Source of the DNA: a virus
Lineage: Duplodnaviria > Heunggongvirae > Uroviricota > Caudoviricetes
Length of the DNA: 52,997 bases
Virus record (IMG/VR): IMGVR_UViG_2585427779_000013
Span: 1 to 52,997 of that record
Direction: 5' to 3' (one strand)
Position 1 is the stretch's first letter. Every line of letters begins with the position of its first letter. The translations under genes were made by a program, and so were the position numbers. Shown here one piece after another: positions 14,659 to 24,754 of this stretch. Under the pieces are notes generated by a model. The model saw nothing but the letters and a program-made list of their open reading frames with translations, had not been told where the DNA came from and did no database searches.

Positions 14659-15142
14659 CAGGTTATTGGCCTGCGTTTATGTCGCCGTTTTCGTGATCAT
14701 CAACCTTATTGTTAACCATTGCGGCCCGTGGGTGATTCCGATCACTACGGTAGCCGCTGTGTGTGTCAATATGATGATCCGCGACTTCCTGTTATATGAC
14801 GGCGGCCTGAAATGGTCGGCTACAACATGCGCCGCCGCTGGCGCAATCACTGTGCTGATAAATTACGACGCCGGAATGGTGGCGATCGCGTCATTCGTTG
14901 CTGTTGTTTCCGGTGCGCTTATTTCTGGCGGCGTTTACCGGGTTTTGCCTGGTGATTTTGATTCGAAACGCTGGCCTGCCAATATAGCGTCAGCCATTGG
15001 CGATGCGTTGATTTTTCCTACGCTATCGTTCATGGCGTTTATGCCGGAAATATCAGCGATGCAATTCATCTCAAAAATGGCAGCGGTAACGGTGATCACT
15101 ATCATCATGCGCCGCTATTTCACGTTTGAGGGCAGAAAATGA
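14639..15142 (+). CDS. polytopic membrane protein (167 aa), possibly transporter-like
   Basis: About 5 hydrophobic helices; sits between the two methyltransferase genes; family not recognised. Confidence 0.45.
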   Translation: MERVTIDRLLACVYVAVFVIINLIVNHCGPWVIPITTVAAVCVNMMIRDFLLYDGGLKWSATTCAAAGAITVLINYDAGMVAIASFVAVVSGALISGGVYRVLPGDFDSKRWPANIASAIGDALIFPTLSFMAFMPEISAMQFISKMAAVTVITIIMRRYFTFEGRK

Positions 15143-15897
15143 GCAGGGCTAAACATTGGTTAAATAATTGGCTTAGAAGTTGGGTGGTATGGTCGCTGTA
15201 CGACGGCAGCGGGTACGCCGTTAAAGACTGGGCGGAAGCAGGATATAAGTGCTATTGCTTCAACTATGACGGCGCAAATCACGGCGATTATGAAGGCGTT
15301 AAAATCATTCATCCAAATATTGAATACGTTAACGTATGGATTGACAGCCATTTCCTGGTGATGTTCTCCCCTGAATTGTCTGTTTATCCAGAGCCTGACA
15401 TTATCTTGGGCTTTCCGCCGTGCGATGATCTCGCTGTGTCTGGCGCTCGCTGGTTCGCTGATAAACGGAGAAAAGATCCTGACTTCCAGGTGAAGGCTGC
15501 GCATAATGCAAAACTGGTAGAAAAACTGGCGAATATGCATAACGTGCCGTGGATGGTGGAAAATCCGGTGGGCGCACTGTCAACGTTATGGCGTAAACCG
15601 GATTTTATCTTCAATCCTTGCGCTTACGGTGGCTACCTGCCGGAAGATGACAAACATCCTGCTTTCCCGGATGTTTACCCGGCGCGCGACGCGTATACAA
15701 AGAAAACTTGTATTTGGTGCGGTAACGGATTTAAGCAGCCGCTTTTCAGACCTGTAGATCTTAACTCTGGTGATAACCCGGGGTGGGCGAAAACAGGAGG
15801 CAGGACGAAACGAACAAAGATGATCCGCTCACTAACGCCGCGCGGCTTTGCCCGTGCTGTATTCCTGGCTAACCATGACCGCGTTTTACCGGACTGA
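15139..15897 (+). CDS. putative DNA cytosine-C5 methyltransferase-like protein
   Basis: 252 aa; PC motif (GFPPCDDLAVSG) and ENV-like motif (MVENPVGAL); divergent from canonical motifs, so assignment is tentative. Confidence 0.5.
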   Translation: MSRAKHWLNNWLRSWVVWSLYDGSGYAVKDWAEAGYKCYCFNYDGANHGDYEGVKIIHPNIEYVNVWIDSHFLVMFSPELSVYPEPDIILGFPPCDDLAVSGARWFADKRRKDPDFQVKAAHNAKLVEKLANMHNVPWMVENPVGALSTLWRKPDFIFNPCAYGGYLPEDDKHPAFPDVYPARDAYTKKTCIWCGNGFKQPLFRPVDLNSGDNPGWAKTGGRTKRTKMIRSLTPRGFARAVFLANHDRVLPD

Positions 15898-16056
15898 AGT
15901 TTACAAAATGGCGTCATTGCGTGATATGGATCACATAATGGCGCTTTTCGCCTTGTTCTGGTGTATCCATTTTGTATACTTCAAGCAAACAAAATGCTCT
16001 TTAAAAATCCGGCAGCGCTGAAATGCGTAGAAATCACCTGAAAAGGAGAGAGCATT

Positions 16057-16233
16057 ATGTCTTTTGATAATTACCAATGGCATGACGACTATGAACGAGA
16101 AAGCGTTATGCGTGCAATGTGCAATGTATGCAGCACGAAGAAAGGAGGCTGTAACGAGTGCAACGAATGCTTAGAACATTGGCTAAGGGCTGGACACGCC
16201 GAAAGGCTGAACGAAACAGAGAATCAAAAATAA
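16057..16233 (+). CDS. small Cys-rich protein (58 aa)
   Basis: AAGGAGAG RBS then ATG; MSFDNYQWHDDYERESVMRAMCNVCSTKKGGCNECNECLEHW; not in ORF track. Confidence 0.4.
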   Translation: MSFDNYQWHDDYERESVMRAMCNVCSTKKGGCNECNECLEHWLRAGHAERLNETENQK

Positions 16234-16247
16234 TCGGGGTGGTTTTT

Positions 16248-16853
16248 ATGCAAAACCCTAAAAAACCCATAAGACGCCGTTGCAAATGCTGCGGCGTTTT
16301 TTTTGAGCCTAAATATCACAATCAAACGTGGTGCAGCGATGAATGTCTGGAAGAACTGAAGTTTGACCAGCTATGCCGCGACCGTGAGAAGGCTATGAAG
16401 GCTATGGAGCGGAAGAAACGCCGTGATAGCCAGAGGGAAGAACGCAACCGGAAGCGTAAACAGTTAAATCCGCGTAGTTATTGGATCAAGCAAGTTCAAA
16501 ACGTATTTAACGCATATATTCGCGAACGTGATGCGCGGTTGCCGTGTATATCCTGCGGGACTTACTACGGTGAGCAATGCGGGTGGGATGCGGGCCATTA
16601 CAGGACGGTTGCCGCCGCAGGACACCTTCGCTTTAACGAGGATAATTGCCATAAACAATGCAGGCACTGCAACCAGACATTAGACGGAAACATAGGAGGG
16701 TATCGCCCGGCACTGATTCGAAAAATTGGCCTCGCCAGGGTGGTAGCGCTGGAAAACAACAATGATACGCATAAATGGACGATCGCAGAATGTAAGGAGC
16801 TAATAAACATCTATCAGGCTAAATTGGACGCTTTAAGGAGAAAGGCGGCATGA
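16248..16853 (+). CDS. ninG: NinG/Rap-family recombination protein
   Basis: Conserved Cys pattern and strong similarity to lambda NinG (RRRC…PRSYWIKQ…LPCISCGT…WDAGHYR…LRFNE…HKQC) by recall; start set at ATG 16248 (track ORF begins upstream). Confidence 0.8.
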   Translation: MQNPKKPIRRRCKCCGVFFEPKYHNQTWCSDECLEELKFDQLCRDREKAMKAMERKKRRDSQREERNRKRKQLNPRSYWIKQVQNVFNAYIRERDARLPCISCGTYYGEQCGWDAGHYRTVAAAGHLRFNEDNCHKQCRHCNQTLDGNIGGYRPALIRKIGLARVVALENNNDTHKWTIAECKELINIYQAKLDALRRKAA

Positions 16854-17257
16854 ATGAATATTCTTTTAGTCTGCCTTACCCGCCGTCGAATAACCGCTAT
16901 TACCGACATTCACGCGGTTTTCACTATATCAGCAAGGTTGGAAAAGAATACAGGGAACAGGTAAGAGACATCATCGAGCTATTAAATTTAAATATTAACC
17001 TACCTTGCCGACTGGCAATTGCAATTTACGCCGCGCCGCCGGATAACCGGATCAGAGATCTGGACAATATCCCTAAATGCCTTTTTGACAGCCTTACTTA
17101 TGCCGGATTCTGGAAGGATGACGGGCAAATCGACTCAATAAAAATTGTTCGCTGCCGGAAGGTAAAAGGCGGACGCTTGTTTATTAAGATCCGCGAACGC
17201 GGCGACCTACTACCGGATATTGACGAATACGCGACTAATATGTGGGGTGAGCAATGA
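16850..17257 (+). CDS. rusA: RusA Holliday junction resolvase
   Basis: 135 aa; SLPYPPSNNRYYRH…RDLDN…GGRL pattern matches E. coli RusA by recall. Confidence 0.85.
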   Translation: MNEYSFSLPYPPSNNRYYRHSRGFHYISKVGKEYREQVRDIIELLNLNINLPCRLAIAIYAAPPDNRIRDLDNIPKCLFDSLTYAGFWKDDGQIDSIKIVRCRKVKGGRLFIKIRERGDLLPDIDEYATNMWGEQ

Positions 17258-17436
17258 AAAACGAAGTTAAAGATCTGCAAATAGATATTCAGCGCGACGA
17301 GCGTGATTTAGAGACGGTCCGACAAATCCAGGCTTTCCACATGCGCGAATTACTTGCGCTGAAAGAGTTCGAAAGAAAGCTGGTGCAATCCATTTCTGAT
17401 CGTAAACGGCTGGCGGCACGTTATGAGGGCAAATAA
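17254..17436 (+). CDS. hypothetical coiled-coil protein (60 aa)
   Basis: ATGA-coupled ORF between rusA and Q-like gene. Confidence 0.4.
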   Translation: MKNEVKDLQIDIQRDERDLETVRQIQAFHMRELLALKEFERKLVQSISDRKRLAARYEGK

Positions 17437-18164
17437 TGAATTTAGAATCCATTCTAAAATTCCACTTTCCTAAATCACCGCGATTATCTGACGAAAGCCG
17501 GGGCACGTCCCCGGACGCTCTTAATACGACGGATGCGCTAACAGCTGCGGGTATGGCGCAATCGCGCGTAGAGCTTGGCTATAGCGCTTTTTTGGGAAAG
17601 ATGGAGCTATCACAAGCCGAAAAACATAAGGCCGTAGTTTTGCTTACAGAGCGTTTAAGGGCTATGGCAAAAGATTATGAATACGTTATGGAACTGGACG
17701 AGGCCAAACGCAATGATCTCATTATTCTTGTTGCCGTTTTCGCGTTTCGGGATTATTGCCAGAGTGCGGCGACCGAAAAAGTTTGCCCTAAGTGCGGCGG
17801 TAACGGGCTTTCACCACATCCATATTGTGAGTACGCATCGACAGTTTGCTCGCGGTGCGGCGGCAAAGGCTACGTTAAAAACCATTGCCAGCGGTGCAAG
17901 GGTCGTGGCGAAGTACCGGATAAAGCAGCCAGCGAGGCGGCGGAAATGCCAGTGTTCAAAACATGCCAGCACTGCGGCGGGCGCGGGTACTCGCGTTTCC
18001 CTGTAGATCTTGTCCGGCAGGCGGTTAATCAGCTTGTTTTCCCGGTAAGCCGATCAACATGGTGGAAGAAATACCGGGCTTTCTATGAAGACGCCATTGC
18101 TGAATTGTTCAAAGAAGAGGCGCGGGCTGACAACGAAATTAAACGAGTGACGCGGGGTGAATAA
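17436..18164 (+). CDS. putative late antiterminator (Q-like) with DnaJ-type zinc finger
   Basis: 242 aa; four CxxCxGxG repeats (CPKCGGNG, CSRCGGKG, CQRCKGRG, CQHCGGRG); located directly after ninG-rusA where lambdoid phages place Q. Confidence 0.45.
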   Translation: MNLESILKFHFPKSPRLSDESRGTSPDALNTTDALTAAGMAQSRVELGYSAFLGKMELSQAEKHKAVVLLTERLRAMAKDYEYVMELDEAKRNDLIILVAVFAFRDYCQSAATEKVCPKCGGNGLSPHPYCEYASTVCSRCGGKGYVKNHCQRCKGRGEVPDKAASEAAEMPVFKTCQHCGGRGYSRFPVDLVRQAVNQLVFPVSRSTWWKKYRAFYEDAIAELFKEEARADNEIKRVTRGE

Positions 18165-18364
18165 TGGATAAGCTGGAAATAAACGATCAGTTTGCCGTTA
18201 TCTTATTTGAAGATAAAACAGGCGGCGCATGGTGTAAGAAAGTCACTGGCGCGGAAGCGCGTTTAATATTGGGTATGGCAAGCGCGTTAAACGAAGGTGA
18301 ATTGCCAGCCGTGCCAATTGAGCCAGTTCATATTTACGGACGGAGTAACGACAATGAAGCCTAA
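18164..18364 (+). CDS. hypothetical protein (66 aa)
   Basis: ATGA-coupled ORF. Confidence 0.4.
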   Translation: MDKLEINDQFAVILFEDKTGGAWCKKVTGAEARLILGMASALNEGELPAVPIEPVHIYGRSNDNEA

Positions 18365-18623
18365 ATTAAAGGAACATATATTTGCAAAGCTGGTTAATGA
18401 CCTGACATTATCTGCGCGGTTGTGTCGTGATACGCAACAATTAAGGGCGTGGATAGCAAGGGATTTAAGAAAATATATTGAACCAGGCAGGCCAGGCGGA
18501 GAAATCACGATGGACGAAGCCATCAAGCGCCGTTCGGCTGAATGGTCAGTAAGTAATACAGGATTAACCGGATACATCGAAGGCTATAACGACTGTTTAC
18601 AGGATCATGGCGATGGCAAGTAA
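18354..18623 (+). CDS. hypothetical protein (89 aa)
   Basis: ATG 18354 with GGAG RBS. Confidence 0.45.
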   Translation: MKPKLKEHIFAKLVNDLTLSARLCRDTQQLRAWIARDLRKYIEPGRPGGEITMDEAIKRRSAEWSVSNTGLTGYIEGYNDCLQDHGDGK

Positions 18624-18921
18624 AGATCTGCATTTAAACCTGAAAGGAGAATACTTTTACGCCATCCGGGCGGGAAAGAAGGTGGAAGAATACAGGCTTT
18701 ACAATGACTATTGGCGTAAACGCCTGGAAGGGCGGGAATATGAACGCCTGATCATTAAGCTGGGGTATCCAGCCAGCCACGAAGCGCACCGGATTATAAA
18801 CCTGCCTTATTTCGGGTACGAAGTAAAAACTATCACGCATCCATTATTCGGCCCTGATCCTGTTAAGGTATTCGCAATTAAGTGTGATGTGAATTGGATG
18901 TTAAGGTGGGGTGAGCAATGA
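18607..18921 (+). CDS. hypothetical protein (104 aa)
   Basis: ORF in packed accessory cluster. Confidence 0.45.
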   Translation: MAMASKDLHLNLKGEYFYAIRAGKKVEEYRLYNDYWRKRLEGREYERLIIKLGYPASHEAHRIINLPYFGYEVKTITHPLFGPDPVKVFAIKCDVNWMLRWGEQ

Positions 18922-19127
18922 AAAAAGCTGGCCTGTCAATTAGCCGTGTATTGTGCGGCGACGAAAACGAGATCCGCATAGAAATTAAATTTAGCATGGG
19001 TAAAGAGATAATTCTTTACACGACACCTGAAAACATGACGCTGGCGCTTACTGGTAAATCTGAAACGCCGTGCGACGTCCGGTTACGCAATATTGAAATT
19101 AAGGAATTAAGGAAGGGTGAAAAATGA
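18918..19127 (+). CDS. hypothetical protein (69 aa)
   Basis: ATGA-coupled ORF. Confidence 0.4.
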   Translation: MKKAGLSISRVLCGDENEIRIEIKFSMGKEIILYTTPENMTLALTGKSETPCDVRLRNIEIKELRKGEK

Positions 19128-19339
19128 AAAGTAACCGTAAACGCCTGGTAAGGGCGTATGATAAAGCATTAAAGGCTTTTGACGACCTGCGACACAATAA
19201 GCGCCAGCGCCGCAAATGGGCGCGTATGCTTGTTTATGAGTGGCATTATTCTGATGCTTTTATGGAAAGTGCGCCGCTATTAACACAAGAACAAGCCGAC
19301 GAAGTAGCTAACGATAACGTTTATTATATGATGTGGTGA
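19124..19339 (+). CDS. hypothetical protein (71 aa)
   Basis: ATGA-coupled ORF. Confidence 0.4.
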   Translation: MKSNRKRLVRAYDKALKAFDDLRHNKRQRRKWARMLVYEWHYSDAFMESAPLLTQEQADEVANDNVYYMMW

Positions 19340-19343
19340 TAAT

Positions 19344-19709
19344 ATGCAAATAATCATTGATTACCTTTGCCACGCTGCAAATACGCTTTTCGGTTTTTAT
19401 CAGCAACCATTCCTGAAAGAATGGGACGAAATGCTTAATGACATCCTCGACAAAGGATTAATAATGGAATTCGGGGAGCTAACAATCAAATTTAATTACG
19501 AAGGCAAAGAATATGACATATGGGTAGGCAACAGATGGTATTCATACGGGCATATTTATTCAATTGGCGGTAAATACATTAAACGAAGTCAGGAATTTAG
19601 ACCGCGCTTCCGCACAATGCGACGACTGCATGACCTGCATATGAAGATATTTGGAGATCAGGAAGCACGGGAATTATTCAAAATTTACGGGGATAAATCA
19701 TGGAGCTAA
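19344..19709 (+). CDS. hypothetical protein (121 aa)
   Basis: ORF in packed cluster. Confidence 0.45.
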   Translation: MQIIIDYLCHAANTLFGFYQQPFLKEWDEMLNDILDKGLIMEFGELTIKFNYEGKEYDIWVGNRWYSYGHIYSIGGKYIKRSQEFRPRFRTMRRLHDLHMKIFGDQEARELFKIYGDKSWS

Positions 19710-19930
19710 AAATCTGGCAGGCTATCGACGTAGTTGATAATGAATTAACAATGTTTGCCACTGACGGAAAACGCGTGGTGATCGCCACATGGACGCACAA
19801 CCATGATGATATTGTTTTTCGTCGCAAAGCTGCGGAATGGCTTTTCTCTGATGAAGGCTACACGATGAACATTGCACAGCTTGCAAGAATGAAGGATGAA
19901 AAGCTGGTAGACAGCTACACAACTGCATAA
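19700..19930 (+). CDS. hypothetical small protein (76 aa), member of apparent paralog family
   Basis: Shares a loose pattern (G..Y… D.G..W.F) with neighbouring small ORFs. Confidence 0.4.
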   Translation: MELKIWQAIDVVDNELTMFATDGKRVVIATWTHNHDDIVFRRKAAEWLFSDEGYTMNIAQLARMKDEKLVDSYTTA

Positions 19931-19940
19931 CGGGGTAAAT

Positions 19941-20174
19941 ATGCGTATTTATGAACACAAGCGGGATAAAACCCGCTTTTTTGTTCGTGCTGGCGTGGCG
20001 TACCAGTATCACGACTGCGGATATATTGAGGCGCTTGCTTACGACATGGATTTCGAACAAGAAAAAGAATGGTTTGACTTTAAGATTTACCGTAAGCGCA
20101 AGCCAACGCGTGACGAACGACACGCTATCCGGGACTTTTTAATCAGCATAGACCGCTGGGAGGCAGACGAATGA
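19941..20174 (+). CDS. hypothetical small protein (77 aa)
   Basis: ORF in packed cluster. Confidence 0.4.
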   Translation: MRIYEHKRDKTRFFVRAGVAYQYHDCGYIEALAYDMDFEQEKEWFDFKIYRKRKPTRDERHAIRDFLISIDRWEADE

Positions 20175-20398
20175 AAGTTAAATTCTTGCACGATCACGGA
20201 TACCCGTCATTGAAACAGGTTGTTGGTAAGGTCGTTAATGTCGTTCATAGCGATGATATTACTTGCATGATTAATGGTGCTGATCTCATTGCTGCTGGTG
20301 CTGATGACCATTACATCAATCCGGCGTGGTCGTATACGTTCAGCATGGGCGATTTCGTCGGGGACAAGGGGCGCGGGCTTGAGATTGTAGAGGATTAA
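20171..20398 (+). CDS. hypothetical small protein (75 aa)
   Basis: ATGA-coupled ORF. Confidence 0.4.
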   Translation: MKVKFLHDHGYPSLKQVVGKVVNVVHSDDITCMINGADLIAAGADDHYINPAWSYTFSMGDFVGDKGRGLEIVED

Positions 20399-20402
20399 CG
20401 GT

Positions 20403-20618
20403 ATGGACGTTTACGAAGATCTCTACCTACAGACCAATAGCCGCACTTTTTATTTTCTGAAAAGCGGCGTCGTATATCGCAGCGACGACGGGGTGATAAT
20501 GAAAGAGTGGTTATTTAAGCGTAAAGACCTACTCGAAGATCTGGTTTTTGCCGGGATATTTCGTAAACGTCCGGCTAACCTGGAAGAAGAAATGTTGATC
20601 GACGAGGTGTTAAAATGA
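20403..20618 (+). CDS. hypothetical small protein (71 aa)
   Basis: ORF in packed cluster. Confidence 0.4.
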   Translation: MDVYEDLYLQTNSRTFYFLKSGVVYRSDDGVIMKEWLFKRKDLLEDLVFAGIFRKRPANLEEEMLIDEVLK

Positions 20619-20860
20619 AAGTGAATTATTTCAGGGCAAAAGACAAGGCAACAGGAAAGCGGGTGGCTATCCTGGTTAATGAAGCAAATTATATGTTTGT
20701 TCTCCAGCCGTGGTGCATGGCTGACTATAACGATGATTATCGTCGTCACGCTGCGCGGCGGGCGGTCGGGATGAAAGGCTGGCAACCGCGCGACATGCTT
20801 AATTATTGCGACTGGAATCTGATAGCAAAATACACGGTAGATTATAAAGGGGTTTTCTGA
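20615..20860 (+). CDS. hypothetical small protein (81 aa)
   Basis: ATGA-coupled ORF. Confidence 0.4.
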   Translation: MKVNYFRAKDKATGKRVAILVNEANYMFVLQPWCMADYNDDYRRHAARRAVGMKGWQPRDMLNYCDWNLIAKYTVDYKGVF

Positions 20861-20862
20861 TT

Positions 20863-21078
20863 ATGTTTGCAAGATGCGTTTATTCTGACACTACATGCTT
20901 TACTACTGGCGAACTATATAGCGTTGATCTTCTTAATGGGTGCAAGCGCGGCGCGGGCGGTATTCATTATGTAAAAGATAATGATGGCGATGCGTGGCAA
21001 TTTTACGGCGATTACGCAAAAGGGTTTGTTAAGGGTAGTTTTGATAATCGTGTGATGGCGCGCTTTGTTAAGTGGTGA
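20863..21078 (+). CDS. hypothetical small protein (71 aa), paralog-like
   Basis: FTTGELYSV…DGDAWQFYGDY pattern recurs in neighbours. Confidence 0.4.
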   Translation: MFARCVYSDTTCFTTGELYSVDLLNGCKRGAGGIHYVKDNDGDAWQFYGDYAKGFVKGSFDNRVMARFVKW

Positions 21079-21087
21079 GGTGGTGTT

Positions 21088-21327
21088 ATGAGACGGAACC
21101 ATAGATACCAGTGCACATACTCACGATGCAGCGCGTTTTTTAAGAATGGCAAGATCTACGAAGTCGGCGCGGCATTGGTTGACGCAAAGGATCAGGAATA
21201 TATTCACGCCATTACTGACGACCAGGGCCAGTTATGGCGATTTTATAAGATGGGGTGTGGCACGGCGCTTGTTTATGCGCGTGCTGGTGGTGGTGCTTTT
21301 GCTGCGTTTTCGTATGTAGGGGTATGA
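21088..21327 (+). CDS. hypothetical small protein (79 aa), paralog-like
   Basis: FKNGKIYEV…DQGQLWRFYKMG pattern. Confidence 0.4.
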   Translation: MRRNHRYQCTYSRCSAFFKNGKIYEVGAALVDAKDQEYIHAITDDQGQLWRFYKMGCGTALVYARAGGGAFAAFSYVGV

Positions 21328-21548
21328 AAATGATTTTAACGTGTAACGAATCGGAATTGGGCTGTTTTGAGGAAGGCGTACAGTATACGGCTGAAAAACC
21401 GATGGGGTTGTCGCCTAAATTTCCGTTTATCGTCGTGACTGACACTTACGGTCACTTATGGTATGCAGAGCCGCTAGGCGGTATTGGTCGTTATGTTGTC
21501 CGTAGTTCGGATGGGGCGATGAAGGTTACTTTTACGGAAGAAGCATAA
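21324..21548 (+). CDS. hypothetical small protein (74 aa), paralog-like
   Basis: ATG overlapping upstream stop; FEEGVQYTA…YGHLWYAE pattern. Confidence 0.4.
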   Translation: MKMILTCNESELGCFEEGVQYTAEKPMGLSPKFPFIVVTDTYGHLWYAEPLGGIGRYVVRSSDGAMKVTFTEEA

Positions 21549-21646
21549 ATGTGATCTACCCTTCAAAGTTTACAGAATGGCATTGCTCTGGCGGTGCCAT
21601 TTTGTTATAAAGAAGCTGAAGAGAGAACGATGCGGAGGGTAGAAAA

Positions 21647-21919
21647 ATGAAACGCTGGATTAACGAAGAAACAGAGGCCCGCTTCAATGCAATTTGGGAT
21701 CTGATTGAAAAAGAGGACGGCGTTTCTAGTCCCTACCTGAACAATCTTGAGTTCCACTATGTAGAAGCGATGAACGCAGAGCATGACCACGAAGGCGGTG
21801 CCGATGAATTCGCTAAAAAATACGGCTTCGATGATGCAAACCATATGATTAACAACGTGGTGATGCAGGCAGAGGAAGACTACGAATGCAAATCACTTGA
21901 ATTCGCACGCATGGCATAA
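21647..21919 (+). CDS. hypothetical acidic protein (90 aa)
   Basis: GGAGGG RBS; preceded by motif pair and a 20-codon upstream ORF. Confidence 0.45.
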   Translation: MKRWINEETEARFNAIWDLIEKEDGVSSPYLNNLEFHYVEAMNAEHDHEGGADEFAKKYGFDDANHMINNVVMQAEEDYECKSLEFARMA

Positions 21920-21929
21920 GGGGGAAAAC

Positions 21930-22070
21930 ATGAACGCTAACGCTAAATATCCGGCCTGGGTCTTTGAACTATACGCCCGCTATTTTGAAGAACTGGCACC
22001 AGGTGAAGAAGCATTAAGCATTGACGAATACGCGGAGTGTTTAGGATTCAAGGGGGACGAAGAAGAATAA
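21930..22070 (+). CDS. small acidic protein (46 aa)
   Basis: AGGGGGAAA RBS then ATG; not in track. Confidence 0.35.
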   Translation: MNANAKYPAWVFELYARYFEELAPGEEALSIDEYAECLGFKGDEEE

Positions 22071-22113
22071 AACACGGGGCCGGATGGCCCCATCAAATCA
22101 GAAGGGTGTAATT

Positions 22114-22413
22114 ATGAAAAGCGCTAAATTCATTGCGTGCTGTTTTGTTGAAGTCCCTAACGATGATGTTTTCTGCAATTATGAATTTAAAGACAGTTTA
22201 GGCAGATCTCATGTTGTTGTTGGTAAGCGCGGCGACTGGTTATATATCACTGATGGAGACAGGATCTTCACTAAAAACCAGTTGTTAAGAATAAAGGCAG
22301 AAAATGATGAAATACCAGTAGGTAATATGGGGATTATGAATTATCACGCTGGTTTATCGTTAAAGCACGATGCGGTAAATAAAGCGCGTAGCTTACCTGG
22401 TGCGGAGTTTTAA
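22114..22413 (+). CDS. hypothetical protein (99 aa)
   Basis: ATG 22114 with GAAGGGTG RBS. Confidence 0.45.
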   Translation: MKSAKFIACCFVEVPNDDVFCNYEFKDSLGRSHVVVGKRGDWLYITDGDRIFTKNQLLRIKAENDEIPVGNMGIMNYHAGLSLKHDAVNKARSLPGAEF

Positions 22414-22436
22414 TTTATTACGAAGGGGAATAATAA

Positions 22437-22760
22437 ATGTCTAAATTTATCAGCGTTAAGGTTTTTCGTGGCAATTTTCCAGAAGATAAAGAAATTGGAC
22501 AATTCGCAGGTGAACGTGGAGTATGTTTCCGTGTAGCTACTGAAGACGATGCGCACGTTAAATGCTTTCACGTATCTGAACCGCCTTTTAATGCAGAACA
22601 TCTTGAAGACCTGAATAGAATTAAAAGCCTTATTTTTGCCTATCTGGCGTTCCCTGGCATAGCTAATGCTGATGTGGGATTGGTTGGCGCTGAACTGGTT
22701 GCGGAATACAAAATGACTGAAGGTGTAACAGGGGGAATTGACATTGAGCGCATCAAGTAA
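22437..22760 (+). CDS. hypothetical protein (107 aa)
   Basis: ORF in packed cluster. Confidence 0.45.
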   Translation: MSKFISVKVFRGNFPEDKEIGQFAGERGVCFRVATEDDAHVKCFHVSEPPFNAEHLEDLNRIKSLIFAYLAFPGIANADVGLVGAELVAEYKMTEGVTGGIDIERIK

Positions 22761-22995
22761 GCTATACAAGATCAGGTGTAAAGGCGAATACCCTGGCTTT
22801 ACGATTGGTTGCGAATACCTGGGCCACATTGGGTACGGCCCTTTCGGTGAGTTGGGGATGAGCACGCTGGACGATGACGGCGACAGCCGGACGCTTGATC
22901 TTGATTCTGATGATTTCGAATACATCCCGCCAGTCACTTACCGTGACGTCGATGATTTCCTGGCTGAACAAGAAGACGATGAAGAGGATGATTAA
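22738..22995 (+). CDS. hypothetical protein with acidic C-terminus (85 aa)
   Basis: ORF; C-terminal EQEDDEEDD. Confidence 0.4.
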   Translation: MTLSASSKLYKIRCKGEYPGFTIGCEYLGHIGYGPFGELGMSTLDDDGDSRTLDLDSDDFEYIPPVTYRDVDDFLAEQEDDEEDD

Positions 22996-22997
22996 CT

Positions 22998-23138
22998 ATG
23001 GATGACGAATACGTTAATAATTTTATTGTTATGTTTCTTAGTGAAAACTGGCGCATGTTTGAACATTATTGTTTTGAGCGCGGGGAAAATGCTGAAGAAA
23101 TATATCAATATTTAGGCGGGGAGAAAGAGGATGATTGA
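22998..23138 (+). CDS. small protein (46 aa)
   Basis: ATG ORF not in track; overlaps next start. Confidence 0.3.
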   Translation: MDDEYVNNFIVMFLSENWRMFEHYCFERGENAEEIYQYLGGEKEDD

Positions 23139-23328
23139 ATGCCTTATTATTGCGGTTATTCTCCTTTACCTGGCTGGCGTAATTTTAATGGGCGCTTTTC
23201 AGAAAGCTGTTGATAGTGACGGCGTCATTTGGTTCGAGCTAGTCTTCTGGCCTTTCATTACGATATACGCTTTCACTGATGCTATGCGCATTAACATCAT
23301 GCGGGAAATTAAGGAGCGCAAAAAATGA
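23131..23328 (+). CDS. small membrane protein (65 aa)
   Basis: Two predicted TM helices (MIECLIIAVILLYLAGVILMGAF…). Confidence 0.45.
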   Translation: MIECLIIAVILLYLAGVILMGAFQKAVDSDGVIWFELVFWPFITIYAFTDAMRINIMREIKERKK

Positions 23329-23495
23329 TTGAAGACGGTATCTATTTGCACAAGTTATTTGACATCGCTTATCTGGTTAAAGGTGACAAGGTGATGATTC
23401 AGAATCCAGAAAAACCATACTGGGAATCAAGCGAGATGGATCGGTGGCATATGCAAATGTTGCTTGATAATGGCCTGATATACAGAAAGCAGTAA
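23325..23495 (+). CDS. hypothetical protein (56 aa)
   Basis: ATGA-coupled ORF ending just before candidate late promoter. Confidence 0.35.
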   Translation: MIEDGIYLHKLFDIAYLVKGDKVMIQNPEKPYWESSEMDRWHMQMLLDNGLIYRKQ

Positions 23496-23503
23496 AGCCG
23501 TAT

Positions 23504-23532
23504 TTGTGGGTCGAAAACAAACGGATTAAAAT
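23504..23532 (+). promoter_or_regulatory. candidate late promoter (PR'-like)
   Basis: TTGTGG, 17-bp spacer, TAAAAT; about 30 nt upstream of a strong terminator and 70 nt upstream of the holin start. Confidence 0.4.
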
Positions 23533-23560
23533 ATTACCTAACAATGCGAAACTGTAACTA

Positions 23561-23586
23561 CCCGGCCCCGTGCCGGGTTTTTGCTT
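23561..23586 (+). terminator. rho-independent terminator (tR'-like) upstream of lysis cassette
   Basis: GC stem CCCGGC-CCCGT-GCCGGG followed by TTTTTGCTTTGTT. Confidence 0.65.
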
Positions 23587-23602
23587 TGTTGGAGGAAAAT
23601 CT

Positions 23603-23803
23603 ATGTTCGACAAAATACGGGAGGCGTGCGCGTATGCAGTAGGGGCCGTAACGGCCTTTTTTGGTGCGATAACCATTAATGATGTTGCTGTCTTTGTGGG
23701 TATCTTATCAACCGTAGGCACATTTGCCGTTAATTATTACTTCAAATCACAGGAGAACAAGCGAGCGCAAGAGGAACACGACGCGCGAATGGGGAATAAG
23801 TAA
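23603..23803 (+). CDS. holin (pinholin-like, two TM helices)
   Basis: GGAGG RBS; 66 aa with two TM helices and charged C-terminus; immediately precedes SAR endolysin as in phage 21. Confidence 0.7.
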
Positions 23804-23804
23804 C

Positions 23805-24296
23805 ATGATTAGCCAATCGCTGAAAAATAAGATTATTGCGGCGGCGGCTGGTGGGGCGATCGCTATTGCGGGGATGATGATAAAAGATCTTGAAGGCGTT
23901 GAGTATAAGCCGTACAGAGATGTCATCGGTGTTTACACGATATGTTATGGACACGTCGGAAAAGACATCATGCTTGGGAAGACTTACACGCAATCAGAAT
24001 GCGATGCTTTGTTAAATAAAGATCTACACAAGACCGCAAAAGCGATTGACCCATATATCAAGGTCGAAATATCAGATTTTACCCGCGCTGCACTTTATTC
24101 CTTCGCCTATAACGTAGGCACTACCAACTTCAAAACATCAACCTTATTAAAGCTACTCAATGACGGCAAGAAATCAGAAGCGTGCGCACAGCTTAAACGC
24201 TGGATTTATGCTGGCGGTAAGCAGTGGCAAGGGTTAATTAACCGCCGTGATGTTGAATATGCCGTTTGCGAATGGGGTGAGACATGGACAAGGTGA
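23805..24296 (+). CDS. SAR endolysin (lysozyme, T4/P1 Lyz type)
   Basis: N-terminal Gly/Ala-rich SAR helix, then [34 protein letters not shown]… closely resembling phage 21 R / P1 Lyz by recall; track ORF starts upstream at 23724. Confidence 0.85.
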
Positions 24297-24754
24297 AGAC
24301 GTTAATTATCGCCGTTGTTGTTTGCATTATTGCCGGGCTGACCGCCGTAACGTGTTATTACCAGAGTGAGGCGGCAAGGTTACAGGAAGAAGTCACGGTG
24401 ACGCAAGGTGCACTAAAGACAGCAAGTAACACTATTCAGCAGATGAAGGATCGGAACGCCGAACTGTCAAAACTTGATAAGAGGTATCACGATGAGATTA
24501 AAGCTATCAGATCTGACATTGCCGATCTGCGTGCTGGCATTGATAGCGGTGCTATCCGGTTGCACGTCAACGCCGAGCCAGTGCGATTGCTCGACAATAC
24601 CGGAACCGCCAGCCGCATTGATGGAGCCACCTGTAGACTCACTCCAGACGCTGAATCGGCTTATCTATCCCTCAGAGAACAACTAAAAGAGAAAGATGCG
24701 AAGATCGCCGGACTTCAGAGCTATATCAAAACGCAGTGCTTACGCAAAAAATAA
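24284..24754 (+). CDS. Rz-like i-spanin
   Basis: 156 aa; N-terminal TM helix, coiled coil, C-terminal pattern similar to lambda Rz. Confidence 0.8.
24492..24686 (+). CDS. Rz1-like o-spanin lipoprotein embedded in Rz (+1 frame)
   Basis: [24 protein letters not shown] lipobox then Pro-rich region, like lambda Rz1. Confidence 0.75.
   Translation: MRLKLSDLTLPICVLALIAVLSGCTSTPSQCDCSTIPEPPAALMEPPVDSLQTLNRLIYPSENN

Follow-up and report, generated by a model that had tools for sequence, protein, structure and literature searches.

The Q antiterminator of phage lambda offers the closest described comparison for the gene treated here. With NusA, residues 1–44 of lambda Q refold into a torus (the ‘torus/nozzle’) in the RNA-exit channel, while the body of the protein is made of four helices with an HTH (residues 61–113 and 153–207) (PMC9388147). 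The zinc-ribbon ‘arm’, residues 114–152, reaches positions 11–13 of the Q-binding element (QBE), which is located between the −35 and the −10, and the base of the arm touches the β’ zinc-binding domain (ZBD) through residues 110–112, 117 and 122–126 (PMC9388147). The Pfam families are PF03589 for Q-lambda, PF06530 for Q21 and PF06323 for Q82 (Yin et al. 2022, PMC9388147). A further described system is that of the mEpimmI phages, a Nus-dependent ‘non-lambdoid’ group. The N-like antiterminator Gp17 of the mEp021 group and its three nut sites have been experimentally characterised, the terminator t5 is listed as experimentally demonstrated, and the Q of mEpimmI phages has been termed ‘Q-lambda-like’ with no experiment on that protein (PMC11893012).

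The DNA analysed here, which we call the window, is a stretch of 52,997 nt (IMG/VR record IMGVR_UViG_2585427779_000013). By sequence it is an mEp021-group (mEpimmI) temperate coliphage, and its Q region is 89–96% identical to those of mEp021, mEp010, mEp013, mEp044, mEp515, mEp554 and MagusPhagus. The Q orthologues are annotated as ‘putative late gene regulator Q’ (mEp021 gp37) and ‘anti-termination protein Q-like protein’ (MagusPhagus); they share 88–96% identity with the present Q in syntenic genomes that carry the same cassette before the holin gene. The mEp021-type Q has 240 aa and a first motif of CxxCGGYK instead of the CxxCGGNG found here, and these differences are allelic only.

The Q gene occupies 17436–18164 on the + strand, starts with ATG and encodes a 242-aa protein of the Q-lambda family. 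As the first-pass annotation had read from the letters, the protein carries four CxxCxGxG motifs, CPKCGGNG (aa 117–124, nt 17784–17807), CSRCGGKG (aa 138–145, nt 17847–17870), CQRCKGRG (aa 151–158, nt 17886–17909) and CQHCGGRG (aa 177–184, nt 17964–17987), and both the ORF listing and the motif positions agree with that reading exactly. The protein has 10 Cys and 16 Gly; when its own composition was shuffled 200,000 times, 314 shuffles contained one such motif and none contained two or more, indicating that the four motifs are not a product of chance. In an alignment to 45 homologues of as little as 32% identity, all eight motif cysteines vary little or not at all. The ATG start is supported by the Shine-Dalgarno sequence GAGGG, read directly at 17425–17429 on the + strand, and by an alignment to lambda Q that is collinear from the first residue onward (MNLESILKFH in the window and MRLESVAKFH in lambda).

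The gene had been placed after ninG and rusA. It does lie downstream of both the ninG-like ORF (16158–16853) and the rusA-like resolvase ORF (16850–17257), which are on the + strand and are named from the orthologue annotations in mEp021 and MagusPhagus, but a 60-aa ORF (17254–17436, + strand) intervenes after rusA. This ORF belongs to PHROG 18514, a family that does not assign a function, and its product is charged and helical-looking. The TAA stop of the 60-aa ORF overlaps the ATG of Q in a TAATG at 17434–17438, and this stop/start overlap suggests that the two are translationally coupled.

Profile, pairwise, PDB-sequence and predicted-fold comparisons agree in placing the gene, which is already annotated, among the ordinary members of the phage lambda Q (PF03589) family of late antiterminators, and they support the Q identity first suggested from gene position. 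In the Pfam scan the protein matched PF03589 ‘Antitermination protein Q’ with 109.6 bits (E = 8.3e-32), above the gathering cut-off of 26.7, and residues 1–240 matched PHROG 127, ‘anti-termination protein Q-like’, with E = 7.2e-79. BLASTP aligned it end to end with lambda Q at 83 identical residues of 240 (35%, E = 5e-47) with one 33-aa gap, and the best matches in a phmmer search of PDB sequences were lambda Q chains (7ubm_Q, E = 1e-38; 4mo1; 7ubj). The AF2 model, built on 46 sequences, has a pLDDT of 82.3 and a pTM of 0.72, and the only significant Foldseek matches to it were eight Q-lambda chains, with E = 6.5e-15 for 7ubn_Q and a TM score of 0.83 at an rmsd of 2.8 Å for 7ubm_Q. This predicted fold fits a helical body with an HTH plus a zinc-ribbon arm. 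Membership of Q21 (PF06530) and Q82 (PF06323) was rejected, as the Pfam scan, at E ≤ 1, matched neither profile. The exact 242-aa protein is present in 13 contigs across NCBI, ENA and Logan, as ‘antitermination protein [Escherichia coli]’.

When placed against lambda Q (PF03589; PDB 4MO1, 7UBJ–7UBN), the window protein is collinear over its full length, with residues 1–116 aligned directly and lambda 117–207 corresponding to residues 150–240. The best-conserved stretch is residues 1–44 (17436–17567, + strand), the counterpart of the torus/nozzle segment, in which 25 of 44 residues are identical (57%). Residues 186–240 (17991–18155, + strand) align to lambda Q 153–207 and are the counterpart of the body’s C-terminal half with its HTH; in the AF2 model they contain two helices, 190–200 and 206–239. 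Between these regions, residues 150–185 (17883–17990, + strand) with motifs 3 and 4 correspond to the lambda-like zinc-ribbon arm, in that the lambda zinc ligands C118, C121, C144 and C147 map to C151, C154, C177 and C180. The 26-aa spacing from motif 3 to motif 4 is the same as in lambda and invariant across the 45 homologues, and the model places a helix (163–169) between strands, matching B1-H3-B2 of lambda. Among the functionally mapped residues of lambda Q, G39, L58, E134 and T206 are identical; G39 and T206 (T239 here) are also invariant among homologues. Conservative changes to Ile are found at V6 and L202, while C53 is replaced by Leu and H56 by Met, so that C53, H56 and L202, all implicated in flap-tip or torus contacts in lambda, differ in the window protein.

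Architecturally, the protein departs from lambda Q only in 33 inserted residues, 117–149 (17784–17882, + strand). These correspond to the single BLASTP gap and add two CxxC knuckles (motifs 1 and 2) to the arm as a putative extra zinc ribbon. In the AF2 model the insertion region has strands at 114–116, 125–128, 131–137 and 146–148 around both knuckles, with pLDDT values of 73–87. Motifs 2 and 3 are 13 aa apart in every homologue, while the loop from motif 1 to motif 2 can be as short as 19 aa or as long as 63 aa. From the fixed 13-aa and 26-aa spacings together with the variable two-strand segment between motifs 1 and 2, two zinc ribbons in tandem are the most likely arrangement of the four motifs, with the 3+4 pair equivalent to the lambda arm and the 1+2 pair an extra ribbon at its base. 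A nested pairing as in DnaJ (1+4 and 2+3) is possible, but the spacing and the homology to the lambda arm favour tandem sites. The 13 aa from motif 2 to motif 3 resemble the spacing of the single-zinc site of anti-TRAP. As for the source of the insertion, local alignment of residues 113–149 with 147–187 scored 60, a value equalled or exceeded by 54 of 500 controls with Cys and Gly fixed, and a recent internal duplication is therefore unsupported beyond the Cys/Gly motif itself.

The four motifs had earned the gene the label ‘DnaJ-type’, and a reading can be built on them in which a DnaJ-like or anti-TRAP-like zinc-finger protein, acting as a chaperone cofactor or a protein inhibitor, stands at the Q position by coincidence. 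The likeness to the DnaJ central domain in the four CxxCxGxG repeats is real, and the protein does match the corresponding profile (PF00684, DnaJ_CXXCXGXG) with 28.4 bits, the DnaJ equivalog TIGR02349 with 22.6 and anti-TRAP. All of these matches, however, fall under the curated cut-offs (32.7 for PF00684, 377 for TIGR02349) and are confined to the Cys-rich 50 residues, whereas the homology to lambda Q covers the full length including Cys-free regions. Lambda Q itself, with just two motifs, gives a similar sub-threshold match to PF00684 of 23.1 bits, and profile scans of the window protein matched neither a J domain nor the DnaJ C-terminal client-binding domain. The label thus describes the motifs but not the family, and since the matches are sub-threshold and at the level of motifs in a protein homologous to lambda Q over its whole length, we reject a DnaJ or anti-TRAP identity, to which we attach next to no probability.

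The four-CxxC arrangement is not special to this phage. The 45 aligned homologues, drawn from a search of 5.8 billion proteins, carry it, and in most source records the name given is ‘antitermination protein’; the same architecture is found in YdfT/QuuQ of the E. coli K-12 Qin prophage (250 aa) and in the Q proteins of SfV, HK225 and Bp96115, which share the 13-aa and 26-aa spacings with the window protein at 34–38% identity. A tblastn search against 50,697 phage records matched 250 of them, and among 59 full-length rows sampled evenly the long form accounted for 31 and the lambda length for 28, so that by sequence count roughly one in two Q-lambda family members in phage genomes is of this type. 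The mEpimmI proteins, including the present one, differ from other long forms in having the shortest known motif 1-to-2 loop, 19–21 aa compared with 35–63 aa elsewhere. In most long forms the sequence of this loop is highly variable (homologues P0013–P0044), and in one homologue, P0042, motif 1 is lost through an apparently frameshifted stretch. Our literature search found no paper on four-motif Q proteins, no structural or biochemical study of a long-form (two-ribbon) Q and no experiments on mEpimmI Q.

The Q gene has the same setting in lambda and in the window, within the nin/rusA region and upstream of the lysis genes. There is no intergenic space 3’ of Q in the window; the next ORF begins at its stop codon, and from 18164 to 23495 about 20 small + strand ORFs are tightly packed, mostly belonging to PHROGs without known function. 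Among relatives, the block between Q and the cassette described below ranges from ~1.9 kb (mEp021) to 6.7 kb. In one IMG/VR locus (L013, IMGVR_UViG_3300045988_060195, 54,420 bp) Q is 100% identical and the cassette lies 4.46 kb downstream, compared with 5.36 kb in the window, so the block differs even between phages that share the same Q. From its sequence, the region looks like a hypervariable accessory-gene (‘moron’) region between Q and its presumed target.

The only cassette of the kind expected for a Q target is found in the interval 23496–23602, directly 5’ of the first late genes, which encode the holin (23603–23803, PHROG 20, 2.9e-19), the endolysin (23805–24296, PHROG 7, 3e-61) and an Rz-like spanin (24284–24754, PHROG 13, 1.3e-40), all on the + strand. 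Its elements follow in the order AAACAAACGGAT (23515–23526), TAAAAT (23527–23532), ATTACCT, AACAAT (23540–23545), 14 nt, a stem-loop (23560–23578) and TTTTTGCTTTG, all on the + strand. We take TAAAAT, invariant in 50 sequences, as the candidate −10 of the late promoter, and AAACAAACGGAT, which adjoins it upstream and is near-invariant in the same sequences, as the candidate QBE. AACAAT is likewise invariant in the 50 sequences and is a candidate σ-dependent pause element, the counterpart at lambda pR’ being AACGAT. The stem-loop belongs to a tR’-like intrinsic terminator called by the terminator scan at 23560–23586, with the stem ACCCGGC/GCCGGGT, the 5-nt loop CCCGT and a U-tract; its RNA fold has an energy of −20.2 kcal/mol (z = −3.9), and it corresponds to TERM_5/t5 of mEp021.

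A scan of viral contigs recovered 45 IMG/VR loci that encode Q at 86–100% identity, while none was found in a scan of genome contigs. In 43 of the 45 loci the cassette occurs once, on the same strand and 3.0–6.7 kb downstream of Q; the two loci without it end 3.1 and 4.3 kb after Q. No second copy lies anywhere in the window within 3 mismatches. Positions 23515–23552 are almost invariant across the 50 sequences, 23 of which are distinct, and in relatives the terminator stem is invariant while the loop is variable. The promoter-terminator cassette noted in the first pass (23504–23586) is thus real and conserved, but its putative −35 hexamer is not. This TTGTGG (23504–23509, + strand) is weak, with 3/6 of the consensus, and variable in relatives: most sequences have TTGTGG or TTGTAG at this position, and 12 of the 50 have ATCGCG (L023, L025, L026, L028, L030, L040, L045, L050, L051, L053, L057 and L008). 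Which variant a sequence has is independent of whether its Q allele is of the 242-aa or the 240-aa type, and therefore this stretch is probably not a determinant of Q specificity.

A consensus promoter scan did not call a late promoter at the cassette, and the assignment is drawn from an analogy to the corresponding sites of lambda, HK225, SfV and Bp96115. In these phages Q is followed by a −10 hexamer, 5–7 nt, AACRRT and then a terminator, with TAAATT-TGACTC-AACGAT in lambda, AACGAT in HK225 and SfV, and AACAGT in Bp96115; the candidate target in the window shares with lambda the layout of −10, AACRAT pause element and terminator. The conservation supports the cassette well as an element linked to Q, while the weak and variable −35 and the lack of a call by the promoter scan leave the transcription start and the QBE assignment provisional, as is the assignment of the pause, which likewise follows the analogy. 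The position of the cassette differs as well: it lies directly after Q in HK225, SfV, Bp96115 and lambda, ~60 bp away in the last, whereas in the window it is 5.36 kb from Q and not adjacent as in the textbook arrangement. The cassette is also compact, as the terminator stem begins ~20 nt past the predicted start and the terminated RNA would be ~45 nt long, compared with 194 nt for the terminated transcript of lambda. The expected σ-dependent pause (~+16 to +18) would fall 5 nt before the hairpin sequence.

Taken with the lambda system, these comparisons make it very probable that Q is the late-gene antiterminator of this mEp021-group temperate coliphage, a true lambda Q homologue expected to work in the same way. 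That it binds DNA, captures the paused polymerase, antiterminates and depends on NusA is our inference from the homology. Q would be made from the delayed-early rightward transcript together with ninG and rusA. Once bound to its late-promoter element, which should sit between −35 and −10 (candidate 23515–23526), it would engage the σ70-holoenzyme paused at AACAAT (23540–23545). With NusA, residues 1–44 would refold as a ring through which the nascent RNA threads, making the RNA-exit channel narrower. The hairpin at 23560–23578 could then not form, and the polymerase would be expected to read into the holin, endolysin, spanin and structural genes.

The arrangement of the locus also admits a reading in which the Q homologue is dispensable or vestigial and late expression depends mainly on N-like (Gp17) read-through across the terminator at 23560. 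The group does possess the characterised N-like antiterminator with its three nut sites, as well as the demonstrated t5 (PMC11893012), and in the window ~5.3 kb of co-oriented ORFs lead from Q straight into the cassette with no terminator-free gap or promoter between them. Against this, an intact Q with conserved cysteines (all eight) and a conserved N-terminal segment is present in each of the 45 IMG/VR loci and 7 phage genomes examined, and the near-invariant −10/pause block before the terminator is not required by read-through alone. Lambda, moreover, still requires Q even though N-mediated read-through is present there. Given the strict conservation of both Q and the pause/−10 block, we consider a vestigial Q quite improbable, and a Q that acts as in lambda remains our preferred reading.

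In a further reading the present Q would be a mechanistic sub-type of Q-lambda, not a plain copy of lambda Q, with the extra ribbon altering loading through, for example, the length or phase of the QBE, a contact with the β’ZBD or σ region 4, or the dependence on NusA. By residue mapping, the insertion falls exactly where lambda residues 110–112, 117 and 122–126 contact the β’ZBD, and where the arm that extends to QBE positions 11–13 has its base (PMC9388147); the extra ribbon is also strictly conserved within a large sub-family. HK225 and SfV, on the other hand, have four-motif Q proteins and keep the −10/AACGAT layout of lambda downstream, and we regard a sub-type of this kind as possible but doubtful. 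The more specific proposal that the second ribbon gives long-form Q proteins a distinct loading geometry or an extra contact with RNA polymerase or DNA, and that mEpimmI Q acts on a compact cassette 3–7 kb away, behind hypervariable small accessory genes, is speculative; if true, such a geometry or contact would be one shown by no solved Q structure. With the preferred reading, the annotation is settled in that the late switch of an mEp021-like phage can be modelled on lambda, and a conserved promoter-terminator cassette is now defined for testing it. The wider interest lies in the two-ribbon arm, found in about half of the Q-lambda family in phage genomes, and in how unusually far the cassette lies from Q.

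Upstream of these genes, a boxA-like GCTCTTTAAAAA at ~15997–16008 precedes a short GC hairpin whose loop is A-rich (region 15990–16035). It is situated downstream of a cytosine methyltransferase gene (15139–15897) and upstream of a ninF-like ORF (16057–16233), and the region is consistent with nutR2 as described for phages of the mEp021 group. At 15940–15960, a weak hairpin with a T-run may be the equivalent of t4.
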